Of a DNA stretch of 34,868 nt, positions 12,614 through 32,500 are shown in pieces; position 1 is the first letter of the stretch; each line of letters opens with the position of its first letter. Position numbers and translations under genes: made by a program. The notes below the pieces were generated by a model. That model was not told where the DNA came from and did no database searches. It worked only from the letters and a program-made list of their open reading frames with translations. The DNA is from an uncultured delta proteobacterium (lineage in GTDB: Bacteria > Desulfobacterota > Binatia > Bin18). The DNA lies in the NCBI GenBank assembly GCA_963733195.1, contig CAVTCR010000044.1:1-34868 (forward strand), written 5' to 3'.

Positions 12614-15600
12614 CTATGATTGCAACTTCTCCAACAATGCCTTCGCCTCTTGCAGATCCTTCGTGTCAAACCCTTCCGTAAACCAAGTGTAGACCTCAGA
12701 TAGCATGTTGTGTGCTTCGTCAAGCTTGGCGCGTGCTTCGTGGTGCGTGGTACGTGAGGCGGCCTGCGTCGCTTGTTGTTGTCGTAGGCGGACTAAGCTC
12801 ATCACCGCACGCAGTTCGAGGGATTTGGCCTGTTGTTTTTGGGCGATGTCGATGGCTTTAAGAAAACACGCCTCTGGAGACGAAGGGGCGATTGGGAGAT
12901 CGGGCGATGGGGCGACCTCGGACTTTTCGCCCGTTCGCCCGTTCACCGTTTCGCCCGCTCGGAGCGATAGCTCTCCGTACAGTCGATACAGCTCTGCCTC
13001 ATAGTAACGCTCCCCAGTTTTGTCCACTACAGTTAGTGCTTCGTTCAACGCGCTCAGTCCTTCTTCTGACCTGGCCTGCCTTTCTATACGCTTCAGCCAG
13101 CAGGGCGAGATGGTACGGCCGGTACAGTGCCATCCCTGTGTCCTGGCTGGCGGCCATACCCTGGTGTATCTGTTGGATGCCTTCCTCTACCTGCCCCTGC
13201 TCGGCCAGTGCCCAGCCATGCTGTACGATGGCCCCTGCCAAAGGAACCGAAAACCCCTGCTCGTTAGAAAGCGCGATCAGTGCTTCGGCCTGCTGCTCAA
13301 CAGCCTGTGCCTCGTGCAGGAACTGACGGAGTATAGTATCCAGGAACCAGACAAGACGCCATGCTTAAAGGGTGATCAATCTCCTGAGCCAGGGTCAGTC
13401 CTGCACGACTCCGCTTCAGCGCCTGGTCTGGATACCCGAGTAACCACAAGATGTTCGCCAGATGAAGGAGACTGAAGACCCCGAGATCCACTCCCATAAA
13501 AGCAATGGCAGAGCGACGCTGCCCAGGGTCAGAAAGGGCAAGGGCTTGCTCACAGTGGGCGCGGGCCGAGACCAACTCCCCCAAAGAGTGCAAGACCGAC
13601 CCCAATCCAAAGTGTGCAACTGGGAGGAGAGCAGAGTCGTGCGCGCGCTGGGCCAGGGGGATGAGTCGCTCAGCCAGTTCACGCGCGGTCTGTAGCTCTC
13701 CCCGAAACAAATAAAATCGCCGCGCGCCCCAGAGCACTGGGACAGAGCTGAGGAGTCTCACCGATCTGCTGGCACAGCTCAAGAGCACGACTGTGGACTG
13801 CTCCCACTTCTGGAGCTGTAGGGCCTTTCGTGAGCGCCAACGGCGTCGCCAGAGCGAGTTGCAGCGTGAGTTCCTGTTGCGCACGCTCAGGGGTGTCTGC
13901 CAAGGTCTGGAGGAACTCTAGGGCTGCGGTGAAGTGGGTGATAGCTTCTGTAGTCGCGGACCGCTGCACCGCCTGTTGGCCAGCGCGGTAGAGATAGTCT
14001 ATCGCTTTCGCGGTGTTGCCACTGCGACGTGTAGTGATGCGCCAGATCATCTGTAGTGGTCCTCTAAGCTGATCTGTAGAGCGCTTCTATCGCTTGGGCG
14101 GTGTGCTCGTGTAATGCTTTACGCCGCTCGTGCAGTACCGAGCCATAGGCGACTTCCTGGGTCAGCGCATGCTTGAAGATGTACTCCACTTCCGGAAACG
14201 CCGGCTGCTCGTAGAGAAATTCTTTGCGTTGGAGCGATGACAGCAGGCGATACACCTCATCTTCTGGCTGCGGAACTACGTGCCGGAAGACACTCAGCGG
14301 AAACTCGCGCCCGATGACCGCCAGTTGTTGCAGCAAGGCTTTTTCCTCTGGCGCGAGGCGGTCAATTCGCGCCGCAAGCACGCCTTGCACCGTGGGGGGG
14401 ATATGCAGGTCTGTCGGCGCGCGCTGCGTCACGGCGGCATAGCCGTGCCCCGTACAGCCTCGCGGATCAATCCCCTCTTCCAATAAGTCCTGCACCACTT
14501 CTTCCATGAAGAACGGCGTGCCTTCGGTCTTCTCCAGAATCAGATGCTTGAGGGCCGTGAGGCTGTGGCATCGTTCCCCTAAGCACCAGCAGCACGTCAG
14601 AAATTCTTCGGCTTCGGCTTTGCCAAACGGCGAGAGGCGTAGCTGCGTGTAATACGTCTTTGTCCCCCACTCGTGCCGGTATTCGGGACGGTAGTTCACC
14701 AGCAGCAGAATCCGTGTACTGGCTACGCTTTCACTCAACGTATCGAGAAAGCTTTGTGTCTCACTGTCAATCCAGTGCAGGTCTTCAAAGATGAGCACGA
14801 GCGGCTGGTTGAGACTCTCGCGCAGGAAGAGTTTCTTGAGTGCCTCGAACGTCCGTCGGCGCCGGATCTGGGGGTCCATCTGCTGCAACGGCGAGGGCGG
14901 CTCTTCAATGCCCAGCAACGCATAGAGGTAGGGGAGCGTATCCTCTAAACTGCGGTCCAGCTCCAACACCTTGCCGATGACTTTCTGTCGTTGCGTACGG
15001 TGCTCATCCTGAAGTTGAATCTGAAAATAGCCCTTCAGCAATTCGATCACCGGCAGATAGGGCGACGCTTTGCCATGCGAGACGGAGTAGGCTTGAAGCA
15101 CGAGGCAGGTAGTGCGAGTGTAGGGGCGTATTGCAATACGCCCCTACGAATTCGTGAAACAAGCGCGACTTGCCTAACCCTGGCTCGCCCATGACCCCCA
15201 CGATTTGACCCATGCCCCAGCCTTGGCGTGATCGAGTGCCTGCTTCATCTGTTCCATCTCACTCTGCCGGCCTACGAAGCGTGTCAATCCACGGCGAATG
15301 GCGACTTGTAGCCGCGTGCGTAAGGCACCGACGCCGAGCACTTCGTACACATTGAGTGGCACTTCCACCCCTTTGATCTCCGCGGTCCCCAATGCTTTCA
15401 GCTCAAAATAGCCTTCGACTAATTTCCGGGTGTGATCCGTAATCAGAATCGAACCGGGCGTCGCCATCTGCTCCATGCGGGCTGCCAGGTTCGTTGAGTG
15501 CCCCACCGGCACGTAATCGGTATGCAAATCATCTTTGCGAATCGAGCGCACCACCACTTCCCCGGTGTTCATCCCGACCCGCATCGCCAGCGGTACGCCG

Positions 15601-16208
15601 TGTTTGAGGCGTACCTGATCACTATAGCGATGCATCTCCTCTTGCATACGCAACGCCGCATACAGCGCACGCTGGGGATGATCCTCATGGGCAATCGGCG
15701 CGCCAAAGAGCGCAAAGATGCCATCTCCCAAGGCTTGCGCCACATAGCCTTCATAGCGATGCACTGCGTCCATCATGAGCTGCAGAGCCGGATCAATAAT
15801 CGCTCGCGCCTCTTCGGGATCAAGTCCTTCAATCAGCGCCGTCGAGCCTTTGAGATCAGCAAACAGCGCCGTGATCGTCTTGCGCTCACCGTCGCTCGTA
15901 CTACGGGCTTCAAGTGCCGCTTGTTCGGCGCGGATACGTTCAGCTAGATGAGGAGGGGTATAACTAACAGGAGCTTGTGGCTGACCTGTCGTGCTGGTGA
16001 GTAAGGAAGAAGAAGTGCCGGTGCCCTTCCAGACGAGGACCTTGCCACCTTCATCAATTGCCACTTGTTGCCCGTCGATCAGCTCCTCTGTGAGGACGTC
16101 GAGTTGCTCATCGGTGAGGGAAAATTCGAGCTTGAGCGCACGATAGGTGATCCGTCCCTTGCGCTGTAAGAGCCCGCTGGCCTGATCGACAATCTCTGAA
16201 AACTTCAC
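12614..16208 (-). CDS. Class III nucleotide cyclase-STAND/AAA ATPase-TPR protein, copy 1 (multiple frameshifts)
   Basis: N-terminal GRITYRALK domain, LFADLKGST/LGDG/TNLAARME cyclase, Walker A GEPGLGKS, Walker B FEDLHWID, YIFKHALTQEVAY, TPR region and C-terminal [18 protein letters not shown]. Spread over several ORFs. Confidence 0.88.
15120..15147. repeat. Perfect 28-bp GTAG-type REP palindrome inside coding sequence
   Basis: GTAGGGGCGTATTGCAATACGCCCCTAC equals its own reverse complement and reads VGAYCNTPL on both strands. Confidence 0.92.
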
Positions 16209-16224
16209 TCCTCCTCCTATGTCG

Positions 16225-17238
16225 TTAGTCTCGATAGCCTAAGACAAATCCCACCGGCAACCCTCCTCCTACTTCCGTGCGACTCGCCCCGCACTCGATC
16301 AGCATCTGTCTCAGCTCGGCGGACGAAAAACTACGTCCCCCAGGGGTGGTTCCGTGAATCATGGCGCTAAAGAGCCACGCAAAGGTACTCGCCGGTTGAC
16401 CCGGTTCCGCCAGAAATTCGATGATACTGAGAACCCCGCCAGGCGCGAGGGCTGCCAGACATTTGTGCACGATCGCGCGACACGTCTCTTCTGGATAATT
16501 ATGCAAAATATGCCCGAGGAACACGGCGTCATACGGACCGCCAAACTCCACCGTACGTAAATCACCTGCTAAGCCCCGCACGCGCTCTGCTACGCCGAGC
16601 TGGGCGGCATAGTCTTGCGCCACTGGGACGATCAGGGGCCAATCCTGAGCGGTCAACCGCGCCTGGGGCAAGCGGGTGAGAGCGACGAGGCCGTACACGG
16701 CCGACCCACAGCCCACATCAAGTAACCGCAGCGGCGCCGCGTGACCAGAGGTCCAGCCGAGATGATCGGCCAGTGCTTGCGCCGTCGGATAGCCTAGCGT
16801 GAAGAGCGCCCGGGTGAGGCGAATAATCTGGTCGTTGGATCCCGTCCCATACTGCCACGGATCCACCCGGTGCTTCTCAGTGACCACCCGCTGATAGTCC
16901 TTGAATAGGTCGAACACCGGCGGACTTATCGTCGTGTCGACTAGGAGGCCGCCTATATAGGTGGGTTTAGACGACACCAAAAATTCAGCTGAGACCGGGG
17001 TGAGCGCATACGCTTGCGCCTGGGTGCCGAGAAACCCCAGCGCGACAAGGGCATCCAGCAGAATGCGCAACGCTTGTGGATCACCACCCACTGCGGCGCT
17101 GAGCGCCGCCACCTCGTCTGTCCCGGCGTGAATATGATCAAACACGTGGAGATCCACTCCACTTTTGAGTACTCCGGCCGCCCACAGCCCTGCCACGATC
17201 TGCATGATCGGTCCGGGTGTGATTGCTTCCTTCGTCAT
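16225..17238 (-). CDS. SAM-dependent O-methyltransferase (dimerisation + methyltransf_2 type)
   Basis: LDALVALGFL N-terminal domain, LLDVGCGSA, GDL and ILHNY. Start placed at ATG 17238 after GAGGA. Confidence 0.88.
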   Translation of the reverse strand: MTKEAITPGPIMQIVAGLWAAGVLKSGVDLHVFDHIHAGTDEVAALSAAVGGDPQALRILLDALVALGFLGTQAQAYALTPVSAEFLVSSKPTYIGGLLVDTTISPPVFDLFKDYQRVVTEKHRVDPWQYGTGSNDQIIRLTRALFTLGYPTAQALADHLGWTSGHAAPLRLLDVGCGSAVYGLVALTRLPQARLTAQDWPLIVPVAQDYAAQLGVAERVRGLAGDLRTVEFGGPYDAVFLGHILHNYPEETCRAIVHKCLAALAPGGVLSIIEFLAEPGQPASTFAWLFSAMIHGTTPGGRSFSSAELRQMLIECGASRTEVGGGLPVGFVLGYRD

Positions 17239-17307
17239 AGGCCGTTCCTCCTGTATTGCAGCCAAGAACAAAATCCCCTTCTGGGCCTGCACGTGATGTC
17301 TACTTTT

Positions 17308-18621
17308 TCAGGCTGCTACGCTGGCTAACTCTCCGATCGCTCGCAGCGTCTTATCCACTTCCTCAGGCGAGGTCAGAAGACTGGGCGCTAGCCGAGCATA
17401 GCTCGTGGCGTAGGGCGTTACGCTGGCGATAATGCCACGCTTTAGTAGATGCGCTACCACCTGCGTGGGGCTCATTCCCGCTACAGTAAAACAGACGATC
17501 CCCGCAGACAGCTCGTTAGACAGCGGCGTGTGGAGTGTCACATGGCGCATCTCCGCCAGGCCCTCCTTGGTGTGCCGGTTGAGCGCATGGATCCGGTCCG
17601 CAATACGCTCTTTCCCGATCGCCTGATGGAACTGAAAAGCTGCCCCTAACGCCCACCGATGCTCGAAGGAGTGAAAGCCTCCTGGCGTCATCAACGTACT
17701 CATCGGGCCAGCTGGCGGTGGGAGGCCCTGCAACCACGCCCGGGACGCCTCAGCCGAAAAGGAGGGAATAATAGCCGTGGCGAGGGGCCAAGCCTCAGGT
17801 TTCCCCCACACGAGCCCCGTCCCCCGTGGGCCGAATATCCACTTGTGACAGCCGGCAACGAAGAAGTCGCATCCGAGATCCGCCATGGACACATTCTCTA
17901 CCCCAAACCCATGGACACCATCCACACACAACAACACGCGGTCAGCCTCGTCGCGGCGCGCATTCACCGTCGCCAGAGCTTCTGCCATGCGACGGATGGG
18001 CAGCTTGACGCCCGTGCTTGAGTGCACCCAAGTCACAGCCACGACGCGCGTTTGCGGTTGCACCGCCTTGACGAGCGTGTCGACGATTTCCTCTTGCGAC
18101 GCGGTTGCAGGCTGCTGGTAGAGCGAGACCTGACGCACTGTGCCTCCCGTCCGCGCGGCGCGTAGCTGGAGCGACACGGCCGTGGAATAGTGATCGTGAG
18201 TCGTGGTGAGAACCTCCTGGCCGGCACGGAGCGCTATCCCGCCATAGAGTAACCCTAGGCCCATCGTGGTGCTATCCGTCAAGGCAATCTCCGTCGGTTG
18301 CCCACCCAGATACTCCGCCGCCGCTTGCAATACTGCCCCTTCCAACCGCTTCCCGTGGTCATGTAAGTATTCAGCGGGGTTTTCATCTAACTTGCGCCGA
18401 TGGGTTTCAATCGCCTCCCGTACAGGAGTTGGGTGAGAAGCGAGAAGGAATCCAGCCATGTGGATGCGGTCGCGCGTCAGCGGGAACTGCGCACGGACGG
18501 TCTCCCAACGTTCGAAGGATGGGGTGCTGTCGGCCTGGGCGTTCAGCGGTGAAACCCGCGGAGCAACCGCGCTGGCTCCGACCAGCAAGCCTGTGCGGAC
18601 CAAAAACATTCTCCGATCCAT
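17308..18621 (-). CDS. Tat-exported class V PLP-dependent aminotransferase (PvdN-like)
   Basis: MDRRMFLV...AQA twin-arginine signal; STTMGL, VDGVHG and GCHKWIFGPRGTG with the PLP lysine; AGGAG RBS. Confidence 0.88.
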   Translation of the reverse strand: MDRRMFLVRTGLLVGASAVAPRVSPLNAQADSTPSFERWETVRAQFPLTRDRIHMAGFLLASHPTPVREAIETHRRKLDENPAEYLHDHGKRLEGAVLQAAAEYLGGQPTEIALTDSTTMGLGLLYGGIALRAGQEVLTTTHDHYSTAVSLQLRAARTGGTVRQVSLYQQPATASQEEIVDTLVKAVQPQTRVVAVTWVHSSTGVKLPIRRMAEALATVNARRDEADRVLLCVDGVHGFGVENVSMADLGCDFFVAGCHKWIFGPRGTGLVWGKPEAWPLATAIIPSFSAEASRAWLQGLPPPAGPMSTLMTPGGFHSFEHRWALGAAFQFHQAIGKERIADRIHALNRHTKEGLAEMRHVTLHTPLSNELSAGIVCFTVAGMSPTQVVAHLLKRGIIASVTPYATSYARLAPSLLTSPEEVDKTLRAIGELASVAA

Positions 18622-18775: not shown

Positions 18776-21700
18776 TCACTGACTTACCTCCTCTAGCAGC
18801 GCCTGGGCCTCTTGCAAGTCTTTGGTGTCAAACCCTTCGGTGAACCAGTTGTAGATATCGGATAACAGCTGGTGAGCTTCGCTTTGCTTGCCCTGTTGCT
18901 GCCACAGACGGGCGAGGCTCGTGGACGCGCGGAGTTCAAGAGACTTAGCTTGCTGCTTTCGCGCGATGTCGATGGCTTTGAGAAAACAAGCTTCGGCCTC
19001 TGACTCCGACCTGTCGTCGCCGTTTAACTTTCGATCCTTGCTCCCTACTCTTTGGTCCTTGCTTTTTTGAGCAAGCGTCAGCTCTCCTTTAAGCCGATAC
19101 AGCTCGGCCTCGCTACAAGCGCTCCCCAGTTTTGTCCACGAAAGCCAGTGCCTCGGCCACCACAGTCAAGCCCTTCCTCTACCTGTCCCGCCTTTCCCAT
19201 ATGCCTCGGCCAGCAGGGCAAGATAATGAAGACCTGATAGACTCTACTCCGTAGCCTGGCACGTGGCCAGGCCCTGACGCAATCTGGGTAATGCCCTCCT
19301 CGCCCTGTCCCTGCTCGACTAGCGCCCAGCCCCGCACGATCGTCCCCAGCGCCAACCAGAACGGAAACCCCTGCTCGGTTGACAGGGTAATCAGTCGCCT
19401 CTGCCCGCTCTCGGGCGAGCGCCCCTCCCGGCGGAGAAGATGGAACACAGGCAGCCACAACTAAAGGCATACGGCCAGACTAAAGGGGTGAGATAACTCC
19501 TGCAGCCAAGGCTAGCTGCCTCCTGGCTCCTCTTGCAGGGCCTGGTCCGGATAGCCCAGCATACCACAGGGTCCAGGAGCCATAAGAGAAGGCAATCCAC
19601 CCTCGGGTTAGTCCTGAGACCAGACGACAGAGGGAGGGTGCGTCTGTGGATCATAGAGGGCAATCGCTCTGCTCTAAGTGTGTCGCGGGCCGAGGTAAAC
19701 TCGCCCAAGAATAGATACAAGGTGTCCCCACGGTCACGCGTGAGCTCCACAGAGGAGATACGGGTCTTGGACGCTCTGGGCCAGATGCAGCATCTGCTCC
19801 GCCAGCTCCTGTGCCGTCTGTACCTCCCCTCGCGACTACGATAAAATACAACACAGTCCATACAGCACCGGGAAGAGCTGCGGAGTTTCTCCCAGCTGCT
19901 GGCACAGTTCCCGGGCCCGGGTATAGTTTTTTCCACTTCCGGGGCCGCATAGCCCTTGACAGGCCATCAAGGCGCACCCAGGGCGATTTGTAGAGGTGAG
20001 TTCTTGCTGGACGCGCTCGGGCGTGTCCGGCAGGGCCTTGAGCACTCCAGTCCCTTGGTGAGGTGAGCTAATCGCTTCCACATAGGCCGAGCGCTGACTA
20101 GCTCTGCTCACCCGCCTGTCTGCCAATAGGGAATGGCCTGCTCTATCAAGCCCTGCCTCGGTGTAGTGATGCGCGAGGAGTTCAGGCTGGGTCTCTTTGG
20201 TATCTGGAAATCGTTCTGCCAGCACCTGAGCAATCTGCTGGTGATACTGCTGCCGCTTGCTCTTCAGGAACGATTGATAGGCCGTGTCTTGAATGAGGGC
20301 ATGCTTGAAGAGGTAGCGTGCCTGTGGCCGAAGCCCGCGTTGATAGAGCAACTCGGCTTCAACTAATTTGCTTAAGGCCGTGCTGTAAGTCAGCTTCGCT
20401 CAGCGGAGACACAGCTTGGAAGAAGTTCGTACGAAACTCTCGCCCGAAGGTCGCTCCGAGTTGGGCTACCTGTCTTGCACCGGTGCAAGCCGGTCGAGCC
20501 GCGCCAGCAAGCGAATCTTGTAGGGTGGCAGGAATCGCCAACGGTGGATGGTGCACGGTACGCTCCCACTCGGACGCCTCTACTCGACTCCCCGACTCCA
20601 GACACTCTTGGTCAACTCTTCCACAAACAGCGGCACTCCGTCGGTCTTGTCACAATCTGCTCCACTACGTCCGCTGGCAGAATCGATTTCCCGCCGTACT
20701 TTCTCGATCATTGCCTCGACATGTTCGTCCCAACCGATTGAGAGTGAGTTGCGTGAGGTAGGAACGCGGCTTCCACGGCGGTATGAACTCAGGCCGAAAG
20801 GTCAGCACCGAGAATAGCCTGGTGGTCGGAATTTGTTCCATGAAGCAGCGAAAGGAACTTCGAGCGACGACGGGTCCGCCCAATGCAGATCTTCCCAGCA
20901 CAGTACACCGTCGCCTTCCGCTGGCTTCTTCCATGATCCACTGCTACCAGGGCTTCTTGCGTCTTTTGCTTCTGTTTCTGCGGCCTCAGAGTCAGCGGTG
21001 GATACCTTGACGGGGTTGGCAACGAAAGTAAGTTCGGTAAACGAGTGGTAAGGATCAGCCTGCAGGAACGATAGAGGCTCAAGCATCTGTTCGAGTTTCT
21101 CGAGTTTGGCCTGACGTGAATCCTGTCGCGCTGAAGAGCAACGTGCGCTGCAGGACGTCGATCAGGGGATAGAAGGCACTGTTTTGGTGATACGGCGAGC
21201 AGCGAGCTTCAAACGCGTAACGTCCCTTCCGCCAGACACCTGCTCCTCGCAGTGTCTACACCAGGCGCGATTTACCAATGCCCGGCTCGCCACTAAGCAG
21301 CACCACTTGGCCCCGCCCTTCTTTGGCTTGCTCCCAGCGATCCTGCAGTAATCCCGCTTCTTGGTCACGACCGATTAAGGGAGTTAAGCGTCGTGCCCCC
21401 GGCAACCTCAAAGCGGCTCTGCGCGTTACTCTGCATGATGATAGACGGCAATCGGAGTGGCGATACCTTTGAGGAGGTGTGAGCCCAAAGGGCTGACACT
21501 CAAACAAGCCCTGGACTAGGTGCTGCGTCACCGCACTCATGACCACCGTGTCAGGCTCGGCCAAGTCCTTGCACGCGAGCAGCAATATTAGGCGTCTCGC
21601 CTAACGCCAGCATACTCCGTCTTCTCACTCGCTGCCGATCTCACCAATCACGACTAACCCGGTGTGAATACCAATGCGGACTTGGATAGGATTCGGTACC

Positions 21701-22193
21701 TCCTGCTGGAGACGAGATATGCGCTCTGACGATCTCCATCCCCGCACGAACGGCACGCTGGGCCTCATCTTCATGCGCGGCAGGATAACCGAAGTAGACC
21801 AGTAACCCATCACCCAGATATTGGGCCATGTAGCCGTCATAGCTGCCGGATCACTGCGGTGCAGGTCTCTTGATACTGCTGCACGACTTCCCGTAACTCT
21901 TCGGGATCAAGCTGTGCGGAGAGTGCGGTCGAGCCCACCAGGTCACAGAACAACACCGTGAGCTGACGCCGTTCGGCTTCCGCCCGGGAAGGAGCCACGA
22001 ACTGCGGGGAAGCCTCTGCAAGCTGCACCCGTGCCGGCTCTCCGGTGAGCGGAGTAGCGCAGGCACCGCAAAACTTGAATCCGGGCGGGTTTGCAAAGCC
22101 ACATTGTGGACAGGGATGCTGGAGGGGAGCGGCACACTGCCCACAAAACTTCATACCCTCGGGATTCGCAAACCCACAGCTCGCACAGCGCAT
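18776..22193 (-). CDS. Double zinc ribbon-cyclase-STAND ATPase-TPR protein, copy 2 (heavily frameshifted)
   Basis: [55 protein letters not shown]-like Walker [12 protein letters not shown] and C-terminal [23 protein letters not shown]. Confidence 0.85.
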
Positions 22194-22430
22194 GCCGCTT
22201 CTTTACTCTTTTAGGTGCTTCGGGGCAAGGAAAAGTTCACCTCTCTCCTTGAGGTCGCCATTTGTGACTACTTGCGCGGGCTTCGCCACACCCCAGCGAC
22301 GTATAGTAAACCGGTCTTCGTCCTGCTGGACGCGGCCTTCCTGTGAACAGTCACCTCTCCAGAGTGCGCTCCTTTTTTTGTGATCCAATCGAGCGAAGAT
22401 TTGTCGACACTCCTTTATGATCCCGGGTAC

Positions 22431-24005
22431 TCAGCGGGCGCAAATGATCACCCCTTCGTCTCCGCGTAAGCGCAGAGCGCCGCTGACCGCCTCACCCTCC
22501 CGGTCGAGAACGGTGGAGAGGATAATCTGTCCTTGGACCTCGGTGTGATTCACTGTGATGGACTCGCTCGCGAAGTTCAGCACCACCACGAATTGCTCCC
22601 GCCTGTAGGCGAGCACACGTTCGTCCGTCAGGACTGGCGCGTACCGGCCAGTTTGCAGGGCGGGTTCGGTGGCACGCAGCGACAGCAGGCGCCGGTAGAG
22701 GGAAAGGAGTGAGCCGGGGTCACGGCGGAGGGTAGCAACGTTAACCTGCGGATAGTTCTCGGCGATCGGCAGCCACGGCGCGCCAGTGGTAAAACCGGCG
22801 TGTGACCCTCCTTCCCACTGCATCGGTGTGCGCGCCGGGTCACGCCCAAGCCCGGGCACGTTTTTCCCCCAGGGATCGTGCGCCGCTGCAGGCGGGATAT
22901 GCACGTCACGCATCCCGATCTCGTCCCCGTAATACAGCGTCGGTGTGCCACGCAGGGTGAGGAGCAGCATGGCCGCCACCCGTGCCTGCCCCGGGCCCAC
23001 CCGCGTCGCGACGCGCGGGTTGTCATGATTCCCTAACACCCAGTTAGGCCAGTGTAGTCCGGCGAGCAGCCCCTCGTAGGAGTCAATCACCGGCCCGATC
23101 AACGTCGGCTGCCACGCCAACTTGACGAGCTGGAAGTTAAACGGAAAGTGAAATCCGGCCTCATAATAGGGCAGCAGCCGGGGGAGCGGCAGGTACGCCT
23201 CGCCGATCATCATGCGGTCGTCGTATTCGTCCAGCACCTGCCGCATGCGGCGAATCACGTCCCGCAGTTCTGGCTGGTCCCGCGAATACGTCGGCAGCAG
23301 TTGGTAGTACGGATCTTGCCCGGGAGTATAATCGGGGTTTGGTGGGTCGTCCCGCCAGGCGGCGTCTTTGATCAACCGCGACACCGCGTCCACACGGAAT
23401 CCGTCGACCCCGCGGTCCAACCAAAACCGCAGGACCGACAGCATCGCCTGCTGGACGTCGGGATTGCGCCAGTTTAGATCCGGCTGCTCTTTGAGATACG
23501 TATGCAAATAATACTGCCCGGTGCGCTCGTCCCACTGCCAGGCACCGCCGCCGAACACGCTACGCCAATTGTTGGGCGGCGCACCGTCGGGTCCGGGGTC
23601 GCGCCACAGGTACCACGCCCGACGTGGATTAGCGCGCGAGGAACGGGACTCTAGGAACCACGGGTGCTGGTCGGACGTGTGGTTCGGGACATAATCCAGC
23701 AGTACTTTCAAACGCAGGCGGTGAGCGGCGGTCAGCAGCGCATCAAAATCCTGCAGCGTACCGAAGAGCGGGTGAATGTCCGTGTAGTCGGACACATCAT
23801 ACCCGAAGTCCGCCATAGGCGACGGAAAGATAGGAGAAAGCCACAGGGCGTTCACGCCGAGCCAGTGCAGGTAGTCGAGCCGGCTGAGAATGCCGGGCAG
23901 GTCGCCCACCCCGTCGCCGTTGCTATCCTGGAATGAGCGCGGGTAGATTTGGTAAATGACTCCGGTCTGCCACCAGCGCGGTGGCGCAGTGATACTCGCA
24001 TCCAT
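22431..24005 (-). CDS. GH13 alpha-glucosidase / oligo-1,6-glucosidase family
   Basis: YQIYPRSFQD, DFGYDVSDY, VPNHTSDQH, GFRVDAV, IGE, NHD and RDPARTPMQW. Confidence 0.94.
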   Translation of the reverse strand: MDASITAPPRWWQTGVIYQIYPRSFQDSNGDGVGDLPGILSRLDYLHWLGVNALWLSPIFPSPMADFGYDVSDYTDIHPLFGTLQDFDALLTAAHRLRLKVLLDYVPNHTSDQHPWFLESRSSRANPRRAWYLWRDPGPDGAPPNNWRSVFGGGAWQWDERTGQYYLHTYLKEQPDLNWRNPDVQQAMLSVLRFWLDRGVDGFRVDAVSRLIKDAAWRDDPPNPDYTPGQDPYYQLLPTYSRDQPELRDVIRRMRQVLDEYDDRMMIGEAYLPLPRLLPYYEAGFHFPFNFQLVKLAWQPTLIGPVIDSYEGLLAGLHWPNWVLGNHDNPRVATRVGPGQARVAAMLLLTLRGTPTLYYGDEIGMRDVHIPPAAAHDPWGKNVPGLGRDPARTPMQWEGGSHAGFTTGAPWLPIAENYPQVNVATLRRDPGSLLSLYRRLLSLRATEPALQTGRYAPVLTDERVLAYRREQFVVVLNFASESITVNHTEVQGQIILSTVLDREGEAVSGALRLRGDEGVIICAR

Positions 24006-27000
24006 TACCGGCCCTCCGACAATTGGTGCAGCAACGCCTTGGCCTCTTGTAAGTCTTTGGTGTCAAAGCCCTCGGTGAACCAGTCGTAGATCTCGGATAA
24101 CAACTGGTGAGCTTCGTCGAGCCTGGTGCGTGTCTCGTGGTGCGTGGTACGTGATTCGGACTGCGTTGCTTGCTGTTGTCGTAGCCGAACAAGACTCATT
24201 ACGGCGCGCAGTTCGAGGGACTTCGCTTGTTGCTTTTGGGCAATCTCAATCGCTCGTAGAAAGTAGGTCTCCGCCTCTTCTACTTTCCACTCTCCACTTT
24301 CAACTTTCAACTGAAGCGTGAGCGTCCCTTTGATCCGATACAGCTCCGCCTCGTAGAAACGCTCTCCAGTTTTATCTACCATGAGCCAGCGCCTCGGCTA
24401 GCGAAGGTCAGCCCTTCCTCAGTTTGTCCCGCTTGCCCATACGCCTCGGCCAGCAGGGCAAGAAAATACGGCCGTTCTATATTTACCCCAATGGCCCGTG
24501 AGGCGGCCAGACCCTGGCGCATCTGGGCAATCCCTTCCTCTCTTTGCCCTTGCTCGGCGAGCGCCCAGCCCCGTAGGCAAGTGCCCGACGCCAACCAGGT
24601 CGGAAACTCCTGCTCGGTAGAAAGCGTAATCACCGCCTCGGCCTGCTCTTGGGCCGCCTGCACCTCTCCACGGCGGTTGATGAAACACGGCGGTAAAGTG
24701 CAGGGTAAAAGCTAGACTAAAGGGGTGAGACAGCTCCTGAGCCAGGATCAGCGCATCGTGCATTTCCGCCCTGGCCCGAGAGGGATACCCAAGCTGCCAG
24801 AGGAGTATCGCTAATTGGGTTTGGATGCCTAGACCGGTGTCGGCCCCGCCGTGCGCAAAGATAAGCGCATGGTGCTGCTGGGGGTCGTACAGGGCAAGCC
24901 GCTGTTCCAGGTGCGGTCGGGCTGGCACCCAAGTCACCGAGATTCAATAATAAGGTTACTCCATCAACTGACAGAGTCTCCAAGAGGAGGGCTGGTCTGC
25001 TGCGTGCGTGTCAGCAAGAGCGCCATACTGCTCGGCTATGCTCAAGTGCTGCGCTGGAGATTGCCGCCCGCATGAAATATAAATACACACAGTCCCCACA
25101 GGACAGGGAAGAGTTGAGGGGAGTCTCGCCGAGCTGCTGACAGAGTTCCGTGCGCCCGTCTGTATGGCTTGCTCTACTTCTGGGGCGGCATAGCCCCTTG
25201 AGTGGCGATCAACAGCTGGGCCAAGGGTAATCTGCAAGAATAATTCCTGCCGGGTGCGCTCGGGGGTGTCCGGCAGGGTCTTGAGCAGTTCAAGGGCAGT
25301 AGTGAGATGAGTGATCGCTTCTGCGTTCGCCGAGTGTCGCACTGCTTGTTGCCCAGCCAGCTAAAGATACTCCACGGCTTTTGCGTATTCCCACTGCGAC
25401 TGTAGTGATACGCCAACTCGCTGTAGTGGTCTTCAAGGTTTAGTGGTGAAGAGCTCTCAATGGCCTGGGCGGTGCTCTCGTGTAAGGCTTTGCGTTGCTC
25501 CTGCAGCACCGTGCCGTAGGCCACCTCCTGCGTCAGGGCATGCTTAAAAATGTACTCGACTTCCGGAAACGCGGGCTGTTCGTAGAGAAATTCTTTGCGC
25601 TGGAGGGAGGCAAGGAGGTGGTACAGTTCGTCTTCGGGCTGGGTGATCACCTGACGGATCAGACTCACCGGGAACTCGCGCCCGATGACCGCCAGCTGTT
25701 GCAAGAGAGCTTTCTCGTCTGGCGCGAGGCGGTCGATACGGGCGGCGAGCACGGCTTGCACGGTGGGAGGAATATGAAGGTCAGTGGGCGGGCTTGTGCG
25801 TCGAGCGCGAGCAGTGCCTTCCTACAGTCGCGGACCAACACGCCTTGCTCGACCAACTCCTGCACGATCTCTTCCATGAAAAACGGCGTGCCTTCAGTCT
25901 TTTCTAGGATGAGGTGCTTGAGGTCATGCAGGGGCGATCGGCCGGTCGCCCCTACGGTGACACCTAAGCAAGACATCCAAGAAATTCTTCCGCCTCCGCT
26001 TGGCCGAAGGGCACTAACCGCAACTGCGTGTAATACGTCTTCTGTCCCCACTCGTGCCGATACTCCGGGCGATAATTAACGAGCAACAGAATTTTGGCAC
26101 GAGGCCACCCCTTCACTGAGCGTGTCTAAGAATCCTTGCGTCTCACTATCAATCCAGTGCAAGTCTTCAAAGACCAGGACCAGCGGTTGGTTCAGACTCT
26201 CTCGCAGAAAGAGTTTCTTCACTGCCTCAAACGTCCGCCGCCGCCGAATCTGTGGGTCCATCTGCTGGAACGGCGAAGGTTGTTCTTCAATCCCCAGCAA
26301 GGCGAACAGATAGGGCAGCGTGTCTTCTAAGCTGCGGTCGAGCATCAGCACTTTACCGGTCGACTTTCTCTCGGCGCTTGCGCTCGTCGTCTTGGGGCTC
26401 AATGCCGGAAGTAACTCTTGAGTAACTCAATCACCGGCAGATACGCCGACGCTTTCCCGTGTGAGACCGAGTAGGCTTGAAGCACGAGGCAGCTAGCTTG
26501 CGAGTGTAGCGATTGCAATAGCCTTAGAATTCGTAGAAACAGCCGCGATTTCCTAACCCCGGCTCGCCCATCACGCCCACGATTTGCCCATGCCCGGCTT
26601 TGGCCTGCGCTAACGCCTGCTGCAGTCTGCTCCATTTCGCCTGCCGGCCGACAAACCGTGTCAACCCGCGGCGGGCAGCGACTTGTAACCGGGTGCGTAA
26701 CTGGTCCCGCCCCAAGCACTTCGTAGACATTCAGCGGCTCTTCGACGCCTTTGATCTGCGGTCTTACCTAAGTCTTTGAACGCAAAGTAGCCATCGGTGA
26801 GTTTGTACGTGTAGGCCGTAACAAGAATCGAACCCGGCGCGGCCAATTGTTCCATCCGCGCCGCTAAGTTCGTCGAATGTCCGATCGGGACGTAATCCGC
26901 ATGCAAGTCATCTTTGCGAATCGAGCGTAGCACCACTTCCCCGGTGTTCACGCCCACACGCATTAACAGTGGTGGATAACCTTTCTGACGAAGAGTGTCA

Positions 27001-27608
27001 GTATAGCGGCTGCATCTCCTCTTGCATGCGTAGCGCGGCATACAGGGCCCGTTGGGGATGATCTTCATGGGCCAGCGGCGCGCCGAACAGGGCAAAGATG
27101 CCATCGCCTAACACCTGGGCGACGTAGCCCTCGTAGCGATGCACGGCGTCCATCATGAGCTGCAGAGGCGGGGTCAATAATGGCGCGGGCCTCTTCGGGG
27201 TCGAGTCCTTCGATCAGGGCGGTCGAACCTTTAAGATCGGCAAACAGCGCCGTGATCGTTTTGCGTTCACCATCGGTGACAGTCGCCGCGCGAATGCGTT
27301 CAGCGAGGTGGGGAGGAGTATAACTCACGGGACTAGGGTCTAGCATCTGAGGTCTAGGGTCTAAGGGAAGGACGGGTTTTGACTCTGGACTCTGGACCCT
27401 AGACCCTAGGACTGTCTTTGCCGACCCACACCAGCACCCTCCCATCTTCGTCAATGGCCAGCCGCTTGGCGTCTATGATTTCCGCGGTGAGGTCTGCTAG
27501 ATAGTCATCATCTATCTCCAGTCGACGCTTCAACGCGCGATAGGTGACACGCCCATCACGTTGGAGCAGCATCAAGATCTGTTCGAGATGTTCGTCAAAC
27601 GTCATCAC
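24005..27608 (-). CDS. Class III cyclase-STAND ATPase-TPR protein, copy 3 (multiple frameshifts)
   Basis: GRVTYRALK N-domain, LFADLKGST, TNLAARME, FEDLHWID, FKHALTQEVAY and [18 protein letters not shown]. Its stop overlaps the GH13 start (TAATG). Confidence 0.88.
25928..25955. repeat. GTAG-type REP palindrome inside coding sequence
   Basis: Minus strand GTAGGGGCGACCGGCCGATCGCCCCTGC, a near-perfect 28-bp hairpin encoding VGATGRSPL. Confidence 0.85.
27333..27408. repeat. Inverted heptamer tandem arrays in the N-terminal linker of copy 3
   Basis: CTAGGGT CTAGCAT CTGAGGT CTAGGGT CTAAGGG ... GACTCTG GACTCTG GACCCTA GACCCTA. Confidence 0.85.
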
Positions 27609-27678
27609 TTCCCCTCACCATTCGCCTATGACACGAGTACGTGGCTTTCCCGTAATCGTGCGAGCCCCTCTCCTACGG

Positions 27679-28077
27679 TTAGGTGAGATTGTCAGTGTCG
27701 TGTAGATCTTGGCGAATTTTCACCCGTTCCCTGCTATTCATATCCAACACCTGTACCGTCGCTCGTCCTACCGGTGTGAGACCTTTAATAACGGCGCCCT
27801 GAAAAACAAAATGTTCGGTCCATATCTGTTCACGCGGATTGAACAATGCGGCCAGTGTTCCCATCACGGGGTCTATACCCGCCAGATTTGGTCCCTTTTT
27901 TAAGTTACATCCTTGGCACGACAGCGAGAGGTTCTCCGGCGAATCGTCGCCGCCGTGTTGTTTGGGTCGGATATGGTCAATGTGGTACGGGATGTAGACA
28001 TCGCGTTCCGCCAGGCCGCAATATTCACAGCGGTGGTACGCCCGCTCGCGGACTAGTCGTCGGACGCTTATCTCCAT
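27679..28077 (-). CDS. HNH endonuclease
   Basis: CEYC...HIDHIRPKQHGG...NLSLSCQGCNLKKG, LFNPR..W..HF and TPVGRATV..L.MN. Confidence 0.92.
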   Translation of the reverse strand: MEISVRRLVRERAYHRCEYCGLAERDVYIPYHIDHIRPKQHGGDDSPENLSLSCQGCNLKKGPNLAGIDPVMGTLAALFNPREQIWTEHFVFQGAVIKGLTPVGRATVQVLDMNSRERVKIRQDLHDTDNLT

Positions 28078-28361
28078 CAGACTGAAGGTGCCGCCGTCGA
28101 CTGGAGAAATTTGCGCGCCTTGGCTTTGAGTAAGGTCATCACCTGATTGACCTGGACGTAACTTTCGTACTCGGCGCGTTCGTCTGGCGTGAGCGTTCCT
28201 TCGTTACATTTGTCGGCCAGCTCTTCGACCCGTGCGACGACGGCTTCGTTCGCTTGCAGGTTAACGAGTTTCTGGGCAACCTCCGGGGTTAAGCAGGCGC
28301 CAAAAGGTTCCAGTAAATCATCAAGCAACGTGCCTTCGGAGGGAGTTGTGTCTGTCGCCAT
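28077..28361 (-). CDS. Small helical protein coupled to HNH (antitoxin-like)
   Basis: 94 aa; ELADKCNEGTLTPDERAEY; TGATG stop/start overlap with the HNH gene; GAGGT RBS. Confidence 0.75.
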   Translation of the reverse strand: MATDTTPSEGTLLDDLLEPFGACLTPEVAQKLVNLQANEAVVARVEELADKCNEGTLTPDERAEYESYVQVNQVMTLLKAKARKFLQSTAAPSV

Positions 28362-28491
28362 GTCGCATACCTCTAGGTGTCCTTGTACCTGAGAGCGAAT
28401 CGACGGTCCACCAGCCGTGGCGTGCGCTCCCTTTCATTTGTTCTCGGACAACATGAAGAGCTCGGAGAATTTCACATGCCCTCCGCACAGG

Positions 28492-29436
28492 TTATGACAC
28501 CCGTCGATACTTCGAAATGCTGCGCAGTTCCCGCGGCGGCTCCAGGTGTCGTCCGCGGATCGAGTAGGACACCTCTGCCACGTAAATGTCGCCATGGGAA
28601 TCCACGGCAATGCCGTGCGGCGCAATGAATTGACCCGGCCCTTCTCCCTCTTCGTCGGCACCGAAGCGGCAGACCATGCGACCCTTCAGATCATAGATGG
28701 AGACGCGGTGTCCCAAGCCAGGGGCGTCATCCACGCCCCCCATGCCATTGAGTTCCCCCACGTAGATATGCTCCCCCCATAGCACCATGGCATCGGGCCG
28801 ATGGATATTATTCCACATGGTGATGAAGGCGCCCTGCGGATCAAAGATCTGGATGCGGTGCGCCTCGCGGTCCACAACATAGACGTGGTCGTCGTCGTCA
28901 ATGGCGATATTGTGCGGACGGATAAATTGACCGGCATCAATGCCAGGGCGACCCCAGGAAAATTTGTACTCGCCTGCCTCCGTATAGACGTGGATACGGG
29001 AGTTGCCATAGCCATCGGACACGTAGACGTCACCGGTGCGTGGCCTGATCGCGGCTGACGTGGGCCGGTTGAACGGTGCGCCACTCCATTTTTTAGCAGG
29101 GGCGTTACGTTGGCCGATTTCCAGCAACTGGCCACCGTCCGTGGTAAACTTCTGGACTGTATGAATGCCGTCGTCCGCCACCAACAGGGAACTATCATGG
29201 GCGATATACAGGCCATGGGTACGGTCGCTAAAATACCCCTGGCCGAATGAGCGGAGGTAGGTTCCCTCGCAGTTGAACACCATGATTGGATGCTGACCGC
29301 GGGTGAGCACGTAGACATTGTCCCGCGCATCAACGGCGACGCCGGGGCATTCGTGAAAAGTGACGCCCTCGGGCAGCGTGCCCCAGCCATCGACATACTC
29401 ATAGCGAAAGTCTCCGATTCCATACACTTCACGCAT
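28492..29436 (-). CDS. NHL-repeat beta-propeller, peptidyl-alpha-hydroxyglycine amidating lyase-like
   Basis: THGL, FNRPT, VSDGYGNSRI, GQFIRPHNIA, DREAHRIQIF and GQFIAPHGIAVDS. Confidence 0.88.
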   Translation of the reverse strand: MREVYGIGDFRYEYVDGWGTLPEGVTFHECPGVAVDARDNVYVLTRGQHPIMVFNCEGTYLRSFGQGYFSDRTHGLYIAHDSSLLVADDGIHTVQKFTTDGGQLLEIGQRNAPAKKWSGAPFNRPTSAAIRPRTGDVYVSDGYGNSRIHVYTEAGEYKFSWGRPGIDAGQFIRPHNIAIDDDDHVYVVDREAHRIQIFDPQGAFITMWNNIHRPDAMVLWGEHIYVGELNGMGGVDDAPGLGHRVSIYDLKGRMVCRFGADEEGEGPGQFIAPHGIAVDSHGDIYVAEVSYSIRGRHLEPPRELRSISKYRRVS

Positions 29437-29501
29437 GACGTGCCTCCCTTCGCGGCGGATAGAGCCTCAACTCGGCTTCCCCAGGCCGATAATCCGCTCT
29501 C

Positions 29502-32500
29502 TTACGATAACGTATCAAGCAGTGCCTTGGCCTCTTGCAAATCTTTCGTGTCAAATCCTTCGGTAAACCAGTTGTAAATCTCAGATAACAGATTGTGAGC
29601 TTCGGTTTGCTTGCCTTGCTGCTGCCAGAGGCGAGCCAAACTCGTCACTGCTCGTAGCCCTAACGATTTCGCCTGCTGCCTGCGGGCAATTTCAATCGCC
29701 TTGAGAAAACACGCTTCGGCTTCGCCTTGGGTATCGGGCACCGGGGCTCGGGGTTCAGTAACTGTTTCCCGTTGCCCATTGCCTGTGACCTGTTGCTTTT
29801 CCCGTTGCAGCAGCAGTTCGCCGGTGAGACGGTGGAGTTCGGCTTCGTAGAAATGTCCTCCGGTTCTCTCCACAGCCGTCCGCGCCTCAACCAATACCGT
29901 AAACCCTTCCTCGACCTGTCCGGTTTTTCCATACGCCTCGGCCAGCAGTGCGAGACTAAGGGCCGTCGCGACTCCGCCCCGGTGGCCCGAACTGCAGCCA
30001 GGCCCTGGTGGATCTGCTGATGCCTTCCTCTTCTTGCCCCTGCATGGCCAGTGCCCAGCCATGCGCGAGGATGGCCACTCCAAACCCAGTCGAAAATCCC
30101 TGCTCGTGACAGAGTACGTGCAGGGCTTCGGCCCACTGCTTGGACGGCCTGCTATATCGTGCAGGTACTCATGGACCTCAATAGTAAAGGCCCAGACCAT
30201 AGCCGTGCTAAGAGGATGAGTCATTCCTGAGCTCGGGTCAGCGCTTCGCGACTGCTTTCCCTAGCCTGATCCGGATAGCCCAGCATCCACAAGACCTGAG
30301 CCAGAGAGGCGAAGGCAATGACACCCATATCCGGCCCATAGCGATGCCTTACAGCGCGCTGCTGCCGAAGATCGTAGAGGGCAATCGCCTGTTCGAAGTG
30401 TTCCCGGGCAGAGCCAAGCTCACCGAGCAAGAACAAGGGTAGCCCCAGCGCCACATGGGCTTCCACGAGGAGAGCCGGGTCTTGTACGCTCTGGGCCAGC
30501 CGCAGCAGTTGTTCCCCTAGCTCACGGCCTGTCTGTAACTCTCCCCGCCCCGTATAGAAAGTGCGCAGCCCCGCGAGCACTGGGAAGAGCTGCGGCGTTT
30601 CCCCCACCTGCTGACACAACGCTAATGCGCGGGCATAGACCGTGCCCACTTCCGGGGCCGCAAAACCTTTGGTCGCCATCAGCGAAGTGCCCAGGGCAAG
30701 TTGCAAGGTAAGTTCTTGCTGGGCACGCTCGGGGGTGTCAGGAAGCGTGTTCGAGCAACTCCAGGCCTGTGGTGAGGTGATTGATCGCTTCCGCATTGGC
30801 CGACCGCTGCATCGCCTGTTGTCCCGCCTAGCTGCAGATACTCTGGCTTTCCCCGTGTTGCCACTGCGGCTGTAGTGATGCGCTAACTCGCTGTAGTGCT
30901 CCTCCAAGCGAGGCGAGTACAGCGCTTCGATCGCCTGGCGCGGTGCGCTCATGCAAGGCTTTGCGCTGTTCGTGGAGCACCGTGCCGTAGGCCACTTCCT
31001 GTGTCAGAGCGTGCTTAAAGAGATATTCGGCTTCTGGAAACGCCGGCTGTTCGTAGAGAAATTCTTTGTGCTGCAGCGAGGAGAGCAGGCGATAGAATTC
31101 GTCTTCAGGTTGGGGGAGGACGTGGCGCACGAGGCTCAGCGGGAACTGGCGCCCAATGACGGCGAGTTGCTGCAGCAGAGCTTTTTCGTCAGGAGTAAGT
31201 CGGTCAATACGGGCCGCGAGGACGCCTTGGACGGTCGTCGGGATATGCAGGTCCGTTGGTAGGGCTGCATCGGCGCGCCGTGCCCCTACAGCTCGCGGAT
31301 GAGAATCCCCTGTTCCACTAACGTCCTGCACCACTTCTTCCATGAAAAACGGCGTGCCTTCGGTCTTCTCCAGGATGAGTTGTTTCGAGGGTCTGTAGGG
31401 GCGCACCGTGCGTGCGCCCGCTGTGGGCCGACACGTCGGTCGTCCACCTACGGAAGCCGAGCAGCGCATCAAGAAATTCTTCCGCCTCGGCTTTGCCAAA
31501 CGGCGCTAACCGTAGTTGGGTGTAGTACGTCTTCTGCCCCCACTCGTGCCGATACTCCGGGCGGTAGTTCACGAGTAGCAGGATCTTCGCTGAAGCCACA
31601 CCCTCACTCAATATGTCCAGGAAACCCTGCGTCTCATTGTCAATCCAATGCAGGTCTTCAAAGATCAGGATCAGCGGTTGGTTGAGACTCTCGCTGAGAA
31701 ATAGCTTCTTGAGCGCCTCAAACGTCCGTCGCCGGCGAATCTGCGGGTCCATCTGCTGCAACGGCGAGGGCTGTTCTTCAATGCCCAGCAGGGCAAACAG
31801 ATACGGCAGCGTGTCTTCCAAGCTGCGGTCAAGCATCAAGACTTTCCCACCGACTTTCTCTCGGCGTTTGCGTTCATCGTCTTGAGGCTGGATGTCGAAG
31901 TAGCTCTTGAGCAACTCAATCACCGGCAGATACGGCGAGGCTTTGCCATGCGAGACGGAGTAGGCTTCCAGCACCAGACAGCCACTCTGGGAGAGCAGCT
32001 TGAATTCGTAGAACAGGCGCGACTTCCCTAACCCCGGCTCGCCCATCACCCCCACGATCTGCCCATGCCCGGCTTTGGCTTGCTCCAACGCTCGCTGCAT
32101 TTGCTCCATTTCGCTCTGCCGTCCGACAAAGCGCGTCAGCCCCCGCCGGGCCGCCACTTGTAACCGTGTGCGTAACGGCCCTGCCCCCAGCACTTCATAG
32201 ACGTTGAGCGGCTCTTCGACTCCTTTGATCTGCGTCTGCGCCCAAGGCTTTGAACTCAAAGTATCCTTCGATCAGTTTCTGCGTGTAGCTCGGTAATCAG
32301 AATCGAGCCTGGTGTGGCCATCTGTTCCATCCGCGCCGCTAAGTTGGTCGAATGCCCCACCGGCACATAGTCCGTATGCAAGTCATCTTTACGAATCGAG
32401 CGGACCACCACTTCGCCGGTATTGATCCCGACCCGCATCGCCAGCGGCAAGCCTGTTTGAGCCGCACGTGATCGCCATAGCGGCGCATCTCCTCTTGCAT

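Follow-up and report, generated by a model that had tools for sequence, protein, structure and literature searches.

Repetitive extragenic palindromic (REP) elements are textbook 'extragenic' sequences. Here we describe a family of GTAG-tagged, REP-like palindromes that occupies three loops within genes for signal transduction ATPases with numerous domains (STAND), and that was noticed in a single stretch of DNA, the whole 34.9-kb contig C44 of an uncultured delta proteobacterium (hereafter the window; host genome 6.95 Mb, 87 contigs). Palindromic repeats inside genes have a precedent in the Rickettsia palindromic elements (RPEs), which measure ~100-150 bp and lie once each in many unrelated genes, whose proteins are still functional. 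To our knowledge, no transposase is known for RPEs. Systems that pair REP doublets forming hairpins (REPINs) with REP-associated tyrosine transposases (RAYTs) have reportedly been described in Pseudomonas and Escherichia coli by Bertels and Rainey in 2011. The TnpA proteins of IS200/IS605 insertion sequences apply HUH/Tyr chemistry to hairpins in single-stranded DNA. Closest to the present case are intragenic GTAG and CGTC REPs, which occur in several species (Di Nocera et al. 2013, PMC3733652). That article describes some REPs that lie in frame within genes, often as dimers encoding 20-30 amino acids, and proposes that they are placed in linkers or loops. It also describes intragenic REPs as scattered over genes that have no relation to one another, a good number of which serve DNA repair.

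An initial sequence-only reading of the window, made by a model, held that in-frame coding palindromes are known mainly as RPEs. RPEs are indeed a known case, but this account is incomplete given the intragenic GTAG and CGTC REPs that PMC3733652 lists. The core observation of that reading is real and far larger than the window. We judge it probable, at roughly 60%, that the palindromes are a selfish REP family that, with a RAYT-like partner, lives in permissive STAND loops, where it has been amplified by growth of the gene family and repeatedly lost, regained and overwritten.

GTAG palindromes in three loops of a STAND gene family

The minus strand of the window carries, from ~12.6 kb to the contig end, four large paralogs and the tail of a fifth. 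The paralogs combine an adenylate/guanylate cyclase domain with an AAA_16 STAND ATPase and a tail of the tetratricopeptide repeat (TPR) type (Pfam Guanylate_cyc and AAA_16, with TPR_12 detected in the tails). The hallmarks of STAND proteins are all present, namely a P-loop NTPase, a helical domain with GxP, a winged-helix domain and a repeat sensor, and in an alignment of 25 sequences (A1) the GxGKSRL motif is invariant and a TxGxPxF motif is found. The best fold matches of a predicted model of the ATPase region (Foldseek; mean predicted local distance difference test (pLDDT) score 70) are Apaf-1, CED-4, MalT, plant resistosomes of the nucleotide-binding leucine-rich repeat (NLR) class and PDB entry 6mfv, at probability 1.00 and low template modelling scores of 0.2-0.3. 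A sequence search of the PDB with the family profile returned no matches. With the ATPase frame of copy 4 as the query (317 amino acids, 31318-32271), tblastn found 147 family loci genome-wide, of which 50 match it with an identity of at least 50%. Named relatives of the STAND gene belong to metagenome-assembled genomes (MAGs) labelled Deltaproteobacteria, Candidatus Binatia or Binataceae.

The consensus of the palindrome family is GTAGGGGC-N12-GCCCCTAC, with interiors that are variable yet symmetric. Units are 27-31 bp long, mostly 28 bp, and doublets span 55-70 bp. Their ends are GTAGGGGC/GCCCCTAC or, in a second type, GTAGAGAC/GTCTCTAC, and the GTAG tag is base-paired with CTAC. As single-stranded DNA, the perfect palindrome at site a of copy 1 folds at -13.5 kcal/mol (z -5.4), and none of 200 shuffled sequences folds equally well. 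Thus, the sequence-only assignment to GTAG REPs holds: these are short, hairpin-forming, GTAG-tagged, dispersed palindromes that are mostly intergenic outside the STAND family and are linked to a RAYT-like gene. They do not conform to RPEs, since the units are of 28 bp and the only genes that harbor them are those of a single family and the transposase gene.

Copy numbers show how strongly the family loci are favored. The host genome (G000) holds 36 exact palindromes of the form GTAGGGGC-N10-15-GCCCCTAC and 20 of the second type. Of these, 24 of the 36 (two thirds) and 3 of the 20 lie within intervals of -1200 to +1300 nt around the ATPase starts of family loci, that is, in the cyclase-ATPase-winged-helix part, which together make up 5.1% of the genome. 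The binomial tail for at least 18 copies in these intervals is 2e-14. Offsets cluster at ~270 (site a), ~825 (site b) and ~920-990 (site c). A looser filter places 26 of 64 GTAG-type palindromes in family loci, again at fixed offsets; the other 38 lie mostly between open reading frames (ORFs), often a few bases past a stop codon and near unrelated housekeeping genes, and two of them are inside RAYT-like genes. The sequence-only reading had proposed a count of the same repeats in intergenic DNA, where most of the non-family copies lie. The copies are dispersed across many contigs, but 24 of only 36 exact ones are intragenic. Taken singly, the 8-mers GTAGGGGC and GCCCCTAC are not over-represented in the genome (74th and 71st percentiles); only the paired palindrome is special. 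The second type, GTAGAGAC...GTCTCTAC, is mostly intergenic in the host genome beside housekeeping-type genes (e.g., C50:132806, C56:37015, C81:20888 and C83:10186).

Related genomes show the same association. The exact pattern occurs in 20 of 31 of them, typically with 25-65 exact copies per genome and at most 65, and a backwards control pattern gave no match in any of the 31 genomes searched. Family matches number 53 in G005, 54 in G010 and 40 in G011. By manual overlay, 18 of 41 palindromes in G011 (44%) and 25 of 44 in G010 (57%) fall within the listed 400-amino-acid family matches, which cover ~1% of each genome. The association with STAND genes is nevertheless not obligate, as genome G009 has 54 palindromes despite only two family genes. 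In the closer of these, L039, none of the three sites is filled, and the more distant L044 has no V-G-A insert. Among 20 sampled palindromes from G009, none lies demonstrably within a domain-bearing gene.

Measured against the published GTAG REPs and REPtrons, as portrayed in PMC3733652, the present elements agree in being short, GC-rich, GTAG-tagged palindromes that occur as single units and head-to-head dimers. Published intergenic copies lie mostly near gene 3' ends and the present ones appear to do so as well, and a transposase gene is flanked by repeats in both cases. Unlike the published elements, GTAG here pairs with CTAC such that the whole 28 bp form one palindrome, and copy number is low, with 25-65 exact copies per genome. 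A further difference from the cases in that source is that one third to two thirds of the copies are intragenic here, nearly all of them in one STAND family and at three fixed loops. RPEs share with these elements the character of selfish palindromic repeats set in frame inside genes, but the 28-bp length, the three recurrent sites of one family, the turnover of subtypes and the candidate transposase set the present elements apart.

The inserts can be read most clearly in the intact genes of relatives. Every insert parsed there is in the frame GTA-GGG-GCx and reads V-G-A/V-E-T...P-L; examples are VGAYGRTPL-LVL (site a), TTVGAQHAAPLQD (site b) and VLPDVGATHASPLPTD (site c). The sequence-only reading had stated that clear copies begin with GTA GGG GC, which agrees with this frame. 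In this frame the element has no stop codon and encodes a short Gly/Pro-rich peptide (V-G-A-x4-P-L), so that in-frame copies would be tolerated and translated. The three sites are the sole poorly conserved stretches in alignment A1, whose mean column identity is 71%. That reading had also suggested mapping the sites onto a predicted structure, and all three are predicted to fall in loops. Site a would lie at the end of the Walker-A helix (75-86) and in the coil leading to strand 93-98, which is the alpha1-beta2 loop. Site b maps to an inter-helix coil at 265-284, with pLDDT below 50 over 268-286, and site c maps to a hairpin at 319-328 or a loop joining two helices in the winged-helix region, where pLDDT drops below 50 over 322-326.

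In the window itself, most sites are as first read (Table 1). The perfect palindrome at site a of copy 1, the empty site a of copy 4 and the collapsed version in copy 3 were all found, the last as a decayed copy, and so were the single REP and the doublet assigned to site b of copies 3 and 4. The site-a segment of copy 1 measures 52 nt, compared with 33 nt when empty, and its frame is consequently shifted in the present assembly. One assignment did not survive: site b of copy 1, taken to be a garbled segment, reads AACGA.GCC.CAGCCTCACGGCC and resembles the NDASLTA of empty paralogs. The REP-like segments proposed for site c stand for copy 4, where the palindrome is recognizable even if it folds no better than shuffled sequences, and only by half for copies 1 and 3.

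Table 1. Positions of the STAND paralogs and their loop sites in the window, and of RAYT-like genes on other contigs
Feature	Position	Strand	Remarks
Copy 1, cyclase-STAND-TPR gene	12614..16238	-	Split into several frames (ORF list); Pfam Guanylate_cyc 15174-16238, AAA_16 14064-15143; 70% identity to copy 4
Copy 2, distant paralog	18776..22202	-	ATPase part ~36% identical; no GTAG palindrome seen in this interval
Copy 3, cyclase-STAND-TPR gene	24005..27472	-	Fragmented
Copy 4, cyclase-STAND-TPR gene	29502..33137	-	Pfam AAA_16
Site a, copy 1	15120..15147		Perfect 28-bp palindrome GTAGGGGCGTATTGCAATACGCCCCTAC; translation VGAYCNTPL
Site a, copy 3	26480..26526	-	Decayed version of the copy-1 palindrome; shares TATTGCAAT and downstream junction CTACACTCGCA
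Site a, copy 4	31969..32001	-	Empty, ancestral state KLLSQSGCLVL
Site b, copy 1	14553..14583	-	Empty, ancestral form plus indels; no REP
Site b, copy 3	25928..25955		Imperfect single palindrome GTAGGGGCGACCGGCCGATCGCCCCTGC; VGATGRSPL; 10-bp stem
Site b, copy 4	31395..31451		Two-hairpin doublet, ends GTAG...CTAC; head-to-head REP dimer layout
Site c, copy 1	14409..14455	-	Degenerate palindrome remnant GTACGGGGCACGGC...; half-recognizable only
Site c, copy 3	25780..25825	-	Weak remnant, begins GTAGGAAGGCAC; half-recognizable only
Site c, copy 4	31259..31289		Degenerate but recognizable single palindrome GTAGGGGCACGGCGCGCCGATGCAGCCCTAC
RAYT-like gene (P0001)	C26:75262-75879 (L020 1763-2380)		Palindrome ends 17 nt upstream; second in frame inside, VGAQHAAPL
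Second RAYT-like copy	C62:139081-139629 (L024)		Same layout as the C26 gene

The paralogs are separated by intact housekeeping genes (aminotransferase, O-methyltransferase, alpha-amylase and an NHL protein). Two HNH endonuclease genes that are 42% identical adjoin STAND copies 3 and 4, at 27679-28433 (minus strand) and 33288-34156 (plus strand). Each is preceded by a small ORF without a Pfam family that overlaps or abuts it, and these two small ORFs are barely similar to each other (E 0.007).

A RAYT-like transposase with an in-frame palindrome

A genome search for RAYT or Y1_Tnp genes, as the sequence-only reading had advised, yielded seven Y1_Tnp matches and a palindrome-linked RAYT-like gene on contig C26. 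In this gene, whose product is P0001, and in the second copy on C62, the internal palindrome (VGAxHAxPL) follows directly after the HUH motif. Across eight genomes, all nine RAYT-like loci carry an internal palindrome, and seven of the nine have another within 400 nt, usually of the same subtype, which is the arrangement of a REPtron, a cognate RAYT flanked by repeats. In 30 aligned homologues, the residues expected of an HUH/Tyr enzyme are invariant (N79, H80 and H82 of the NHxH motif; W147, Q148, Y151, E153 and H154), and the V-G-A...P of the in-frame palindrome is near-invariant among these members from many phyla. The family is large, with 5070 homologues at E <= 1e-10, several of which carry the JGI (Joint Genome Institute) label 'REP element-mobilizing transposase RayT'. 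The protein scores 22.9 against Pfam Y1_Tnp, whose cut-off is 23. Some homologues hold several tandem copies of the palindrome.

Repeat types and transposase lineages also go together. A divergent lineage (L073, G001:C255), 40% identical to P0001, accompanies the GTAGAGAC type. In a comparison among kin that are not independent, a RAYT-like gene is present in 9 of 10 genomes with at least 18 palindromes. Of the 15 genomes with 0-1 palindromes, 2 have the gene, each time as a fragment. From the co-location, from the co-occurrence across 31 genomes and from a genome-specific subtype that sits at different sites (see below), we infer that the RAYT-like protein probably mobilizes the palindromes.

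Two other candidates for a partner were set aside. Six of the seven Y1_Tnp matches are IS200-like, and none of these is flanked by the palindromes; three of the six have in-frame TAG stops and are likely decayed (C54:33118-33474, C25:48592-48912 and C56:9091-9414). A genuine RAYT (C70:93736-94206, L007 1456-1926), which scores 131.7 bits in NCBIfam, is flanked by a different REP. This C70 gene has a frameshifted C-terminus and E. coli-like REPs, GTAGGCCGGAATAAGCG...CCGGCA, on both sides; these form a separate, small REP family, whose 16-mer is present in 8 copies on 3 contigs.

The pairing resembles REPIN-RAYT systems in that a single- or few-copy Y1 HUH transposase is joined to a cognate hairpin population and RAYT lineages match repeat types. 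It differs in that the enzyme is a distant RAYT relative (64-72 versus 80 bits), in that single perfect palindromes take the place of inverted REP pairs, and in that coding sequence is the main habitat. As in IS200/IS605 TnpA, HUH/Tyr chemistry on hairpins would allow cutting at the foot of the 28-mer and rejoining, but no conserved target tetranucleotide was seen here. The partner transposase, with an in-frame copy in its own gene, is also unlike what PMC3733652 describes for GTAG REPs.

Occupancy, turnover and competing explanations

Any account of the palindromes must first deal with the quality of the assembly, which is unreliable in exactly these family genes. Close paralogs in this genome are mostly split into several frames, the longest ORF being 1038 amino acids, and 77 singleton 1-nt indels were counted in ~66 kb of aligned paralog DNA (~1.2 per kb). 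These facts might suggest that the palindromes are themselves errors of assembly or polishing in a repeat-rich, error-prone assembly, since relatives' copies are intact. We regard this as very improbable, as the same palindromes occur at the same sites in intact frames in independent assemblies of at least four other genomes and also in named public MAG records (L077, L080 and L110). Furthermore, site a of copy 1 is spanned by two contigs from other public runs, one over 15054-15210 and one over 15028-15192, and each is just 2 letters longer than the window there. These letters would restore the frame of copy 1 at this point, provided that the two lie within the site-a segment. In G001 and G002, which are of the same genus, and in G005, G010 and G011, most family genes are intact, with frames of ~1000-1240 amino acids without stops; the top matches in G005, G010 and G011 have open frames of ~630-1240 amino acids. 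The non-family genes in the window are intact. The frameshifts are therefore probably, for the most part, consensus errors confined to repeated genes. Homopolymer errors are not the cause, as the singleton indels show no homopolymer bias. Among the public runs searched for the source reads, none exceeded 0.21 of sampled words, and four yielded only short contigs of relatives.

The sequence-only reading had proposed that occupancy be tabulated over aligned paralogs. Of the 50 close paralogs, 49 could be aligned (one starts late in the query) and 47 were scored, after the removal of one that a contig end truncates and of another that was misaligned. Palindromes occupy site a in 13 of the 47, and sites b and c in 38 and 24, respectively. 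At least three structurally different alleles or junction types exist at site a, the sister paralogs on C77 and C50 carry different palindrome subtypes, and site-b inserts include doublets. Subtype pools differ between genomes. For example, GCGATTCATGAATCGC occurs in the list for G011 and not in those for G000 or G010, and there it is found at site a in L049 and L061 and at site c in L035, and a distant paralog has it too.

In some paralogs, site b instead houses a hairpin repeat unrelated to the GTAG palindromes, CCCTCTCCC...GGGAGAGGG, which is often doubled and reads SPQPSPQRGEGESPRPSGERARVRG. It is carried at C73:30116, C19:64900 and C35:3272 in the host genome and by L046, L049, L051, L054, L055, L061 and L064 among relatives, and similar hairpins occur elsewhere in the genome. 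Distant paralogs add further palindrome sites, namely a cyclase-domain loop before the RIGIHTG strand in L032 (C70:53822) and L033 (C59:84835), and a position within the ATPase domain of L031 (C84:33048).

The state from which these patterns arose can be gauged from a wider sample. Among 80 loci from many phyla (including Cupriavidus, Ralstonia, Methylomirabilota and Rokubacteria), 76 have no GTAG palindrome, and the four that do are Binatia-like. Outgroup segments at sites a, b and c measure 11-12, 7 and 14-15 amino acids and resemble those of empty paralogs. Judging from these sequences, empty is the ancestral state at all three sites. In a clade of only ~30% identity, palindromes lie at the position that corresponds to site c, and two members have one in a cyclase loop; genes of similarly low identity in G009 and G019 (30-32% to L034) lack palindromes.

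One explanation for the fixed positions is that a single ancient insert entered each site before the family expanded and was then passed on by vertical descent only. Arm-to-arm correction would keep such inserts symmetric, and empty sites would be secondary deletions. Template switching in quasipalindromes, which corrects one arm to match the other, is known from the E. coli literature. Position and reading frame are identical in all copies, as this explanation predicts, and the occupancy of site b is high. In the L034-like group, site a is filled in several genomes with differing yet symmetric interiors, compensatory outer changes (GGAG...CTCC) are found, and flanks are shared at site c. We still consider a single ancient insertion per site unlikely. 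The sequence-only reading had recognized that one ancestral insert per site, shared by all paralogs, would refute repeated filling, but the outgroups are empty, and parsimony on the 47-paralog tree requires 9, 7 and 15 changes at sites a, b and c, near the means of 11.5, 8.3 and 16.0 for shuffled labels. Empty paralogs retain the outgroup-like KLLSQSGCLVL, NDASLTA and GERGxYRLE without deletion scars. The very same 28-mers turn up at more than one site, in intergenic DNA, and beside or within the RAYT-like gene. Together, the empty outgroups, the scattered occupancy on the tree, the palindromes in the 30%-identical clade and the genome-specific subtype of G011 argue against one insert per site with simple descent. 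Thus, the proposal that the loops are filled repeatedly is supported. In these data, the new, independent insertion that it also posits would look the same as gene conversion or as the overwriting of a palindrome already in place.

A selfish REP family in permissive loops would accommodate these observations as follows. GTAG-tagged REPs, with a RAYT-like HUH tyrosine transposase as partner, may have entered three surface loops of an ancestrally empty cyclase-STAND-TPR gene in a Binatia-like lineage. These would be the alpha1-beta2 loop that follows Walker A, a loop between two helices ahead of the GxP motif, and a wing or loop of the winged-helix domain. Copies restored to the stop-free frame GTA-GGG-GCx would be tolerated and translated, and growth of the gene family to 40-150 loci per genome would have multiplied them. 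Sites would later have been emptied, refilled and, above all, overwritten by the current REP subtype of the genome, perhaps through the action of the transposase, or else because the conserved 8-nt arms allow template switching. The elements would be selfish passengers in permissive loops rather than parts built for the gene, and three hypervariable islands in an otherwise highly conserved NLR-like protein would be a side effect.

Several observations, in addition to the poor state of the assembly in these genes, weigh against this account. One of two open frames is used exclusively, in all inserts and at no fewer than six distinct sites, which a model of purely random passengers would not predict and which suggests either that the peptide is under selection or that the inserts share descent. 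Rather than adding cleanly to the former sequence, inserts take the place of 6-30 nt of it, so that patch repair or conversion fits as well as transposition. The bases that precede GTAG and follow CTAC show no conservation, and neither a target motif nor a transposition event was seen among these copies. In a test for conversion tracts, occupied pairs show no increase in flank identity at site a, a slight increase at site b and a clear one at site c only. At this last site occupied copies share flanks too (identity excess -0.022 versus -0.071), and part of the pattern there therefore reflects inherited haplotypes. Support for the paralog tree is moderate (median 0.886), and recombination may have obscured some of its signal. 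Same-genus paralogs, at 70-88% DNA identity, allow no safe orthologue pairing by DNA. Lastly, the sole NCBIfam match of the partner protein, REP_Tyr_transpos (NF047646), scores 64.0 and 71.7 bits, below the cut-off of 80, and for this reason we term it RAYT-like.

Some of the same observations could mean that the cell makes use of the hairpins in these genes or of the peptides they encode. The palindromes might regulate a cyclase-STAND protein that could be toxic, through structures they form in its mRNA or DNA, or they might be recombination or diversification signals by which the RAYT-like enzyme varies loops or exchanges modules between paralogs. In this regard, the palindromes remain perfect within paralog coding DNA that is only ~74% identical, a single reading frame is used, the sites bracket functional modules, and the transposase family keeps its in-frame copy in nearly all of the 30 aligned homologues. 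In a search for recombination breakpoints, a sliding-window profile of tree agreement and distance correlation dips locally to 0.59 at site a and to 0.59-0.62 at site b, but equally deep minima lie off-site, at x=500 (0.57) and at 1140-1160 (~0.60). Moreover, many members work without an insert, including the empty paralogs and all outgroups, the unrelated hairpin repeat is also housed at site b, and G009 retains palindromes without the gene family. A host function seems to us improbable overall, yet the exclusive use of one frame, the lasting perfect symmetry and the placing of the sites around modules still lend a functional reading some weight.

More speculatively, by analogy, the REP and RAYT-like pair might be a device that diversifies loops or shuffles modules in an NLR-like receptor repertoire. 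The three palindromes would then be recombination signals at which the transposase cuts and rejoins, overwriting loop peptides and swapping cyclase, ATPase and TPR modules among 40-150 paralogs. We hold this to be quite doubtful. If true, it would be a prokaryotic counterpart, by analogy only, of transposase-derived receptor diversification.

Implications for hairpin repeats and receptor-like genes

In a full-text literature search, we found no report of REPs in STAND genes or of their concentration at three fixed loops across genera, none of subtype turnover at such sites, and none of a cognate RAYT-like gene with its own in-frame REP; the supplement of PMC3733652 may list related intragenic cases. 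We take the palindromes described here, a probably selfish family with a candidate RAYT-like partner, to be a REP family that lives largely within the coding sequence of one immune-receptor-like family in several genera.

For annotation, the family carries a practical warning, as repeats can give rise to 'VGAxxxxPL' islands and to local frameshifts in genes of this kind. The very large and little-studied RAYT-like family, which nearly always carries its own in-frame palindrome, may offer a ready pairing of enzyme and substrate. The STAND family likewise provides a natural system for the entry of hairpin repeats into reading frames and their exit from them, for the insertion tolerance of STAND/NLR loops, and for selfish repeats as a possible source of loop variation in a receptor family. 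If the selfish origin of the palindromes is correct, then selfish hairpin repeats can repeatedly rewrite surface loops across a gene family.

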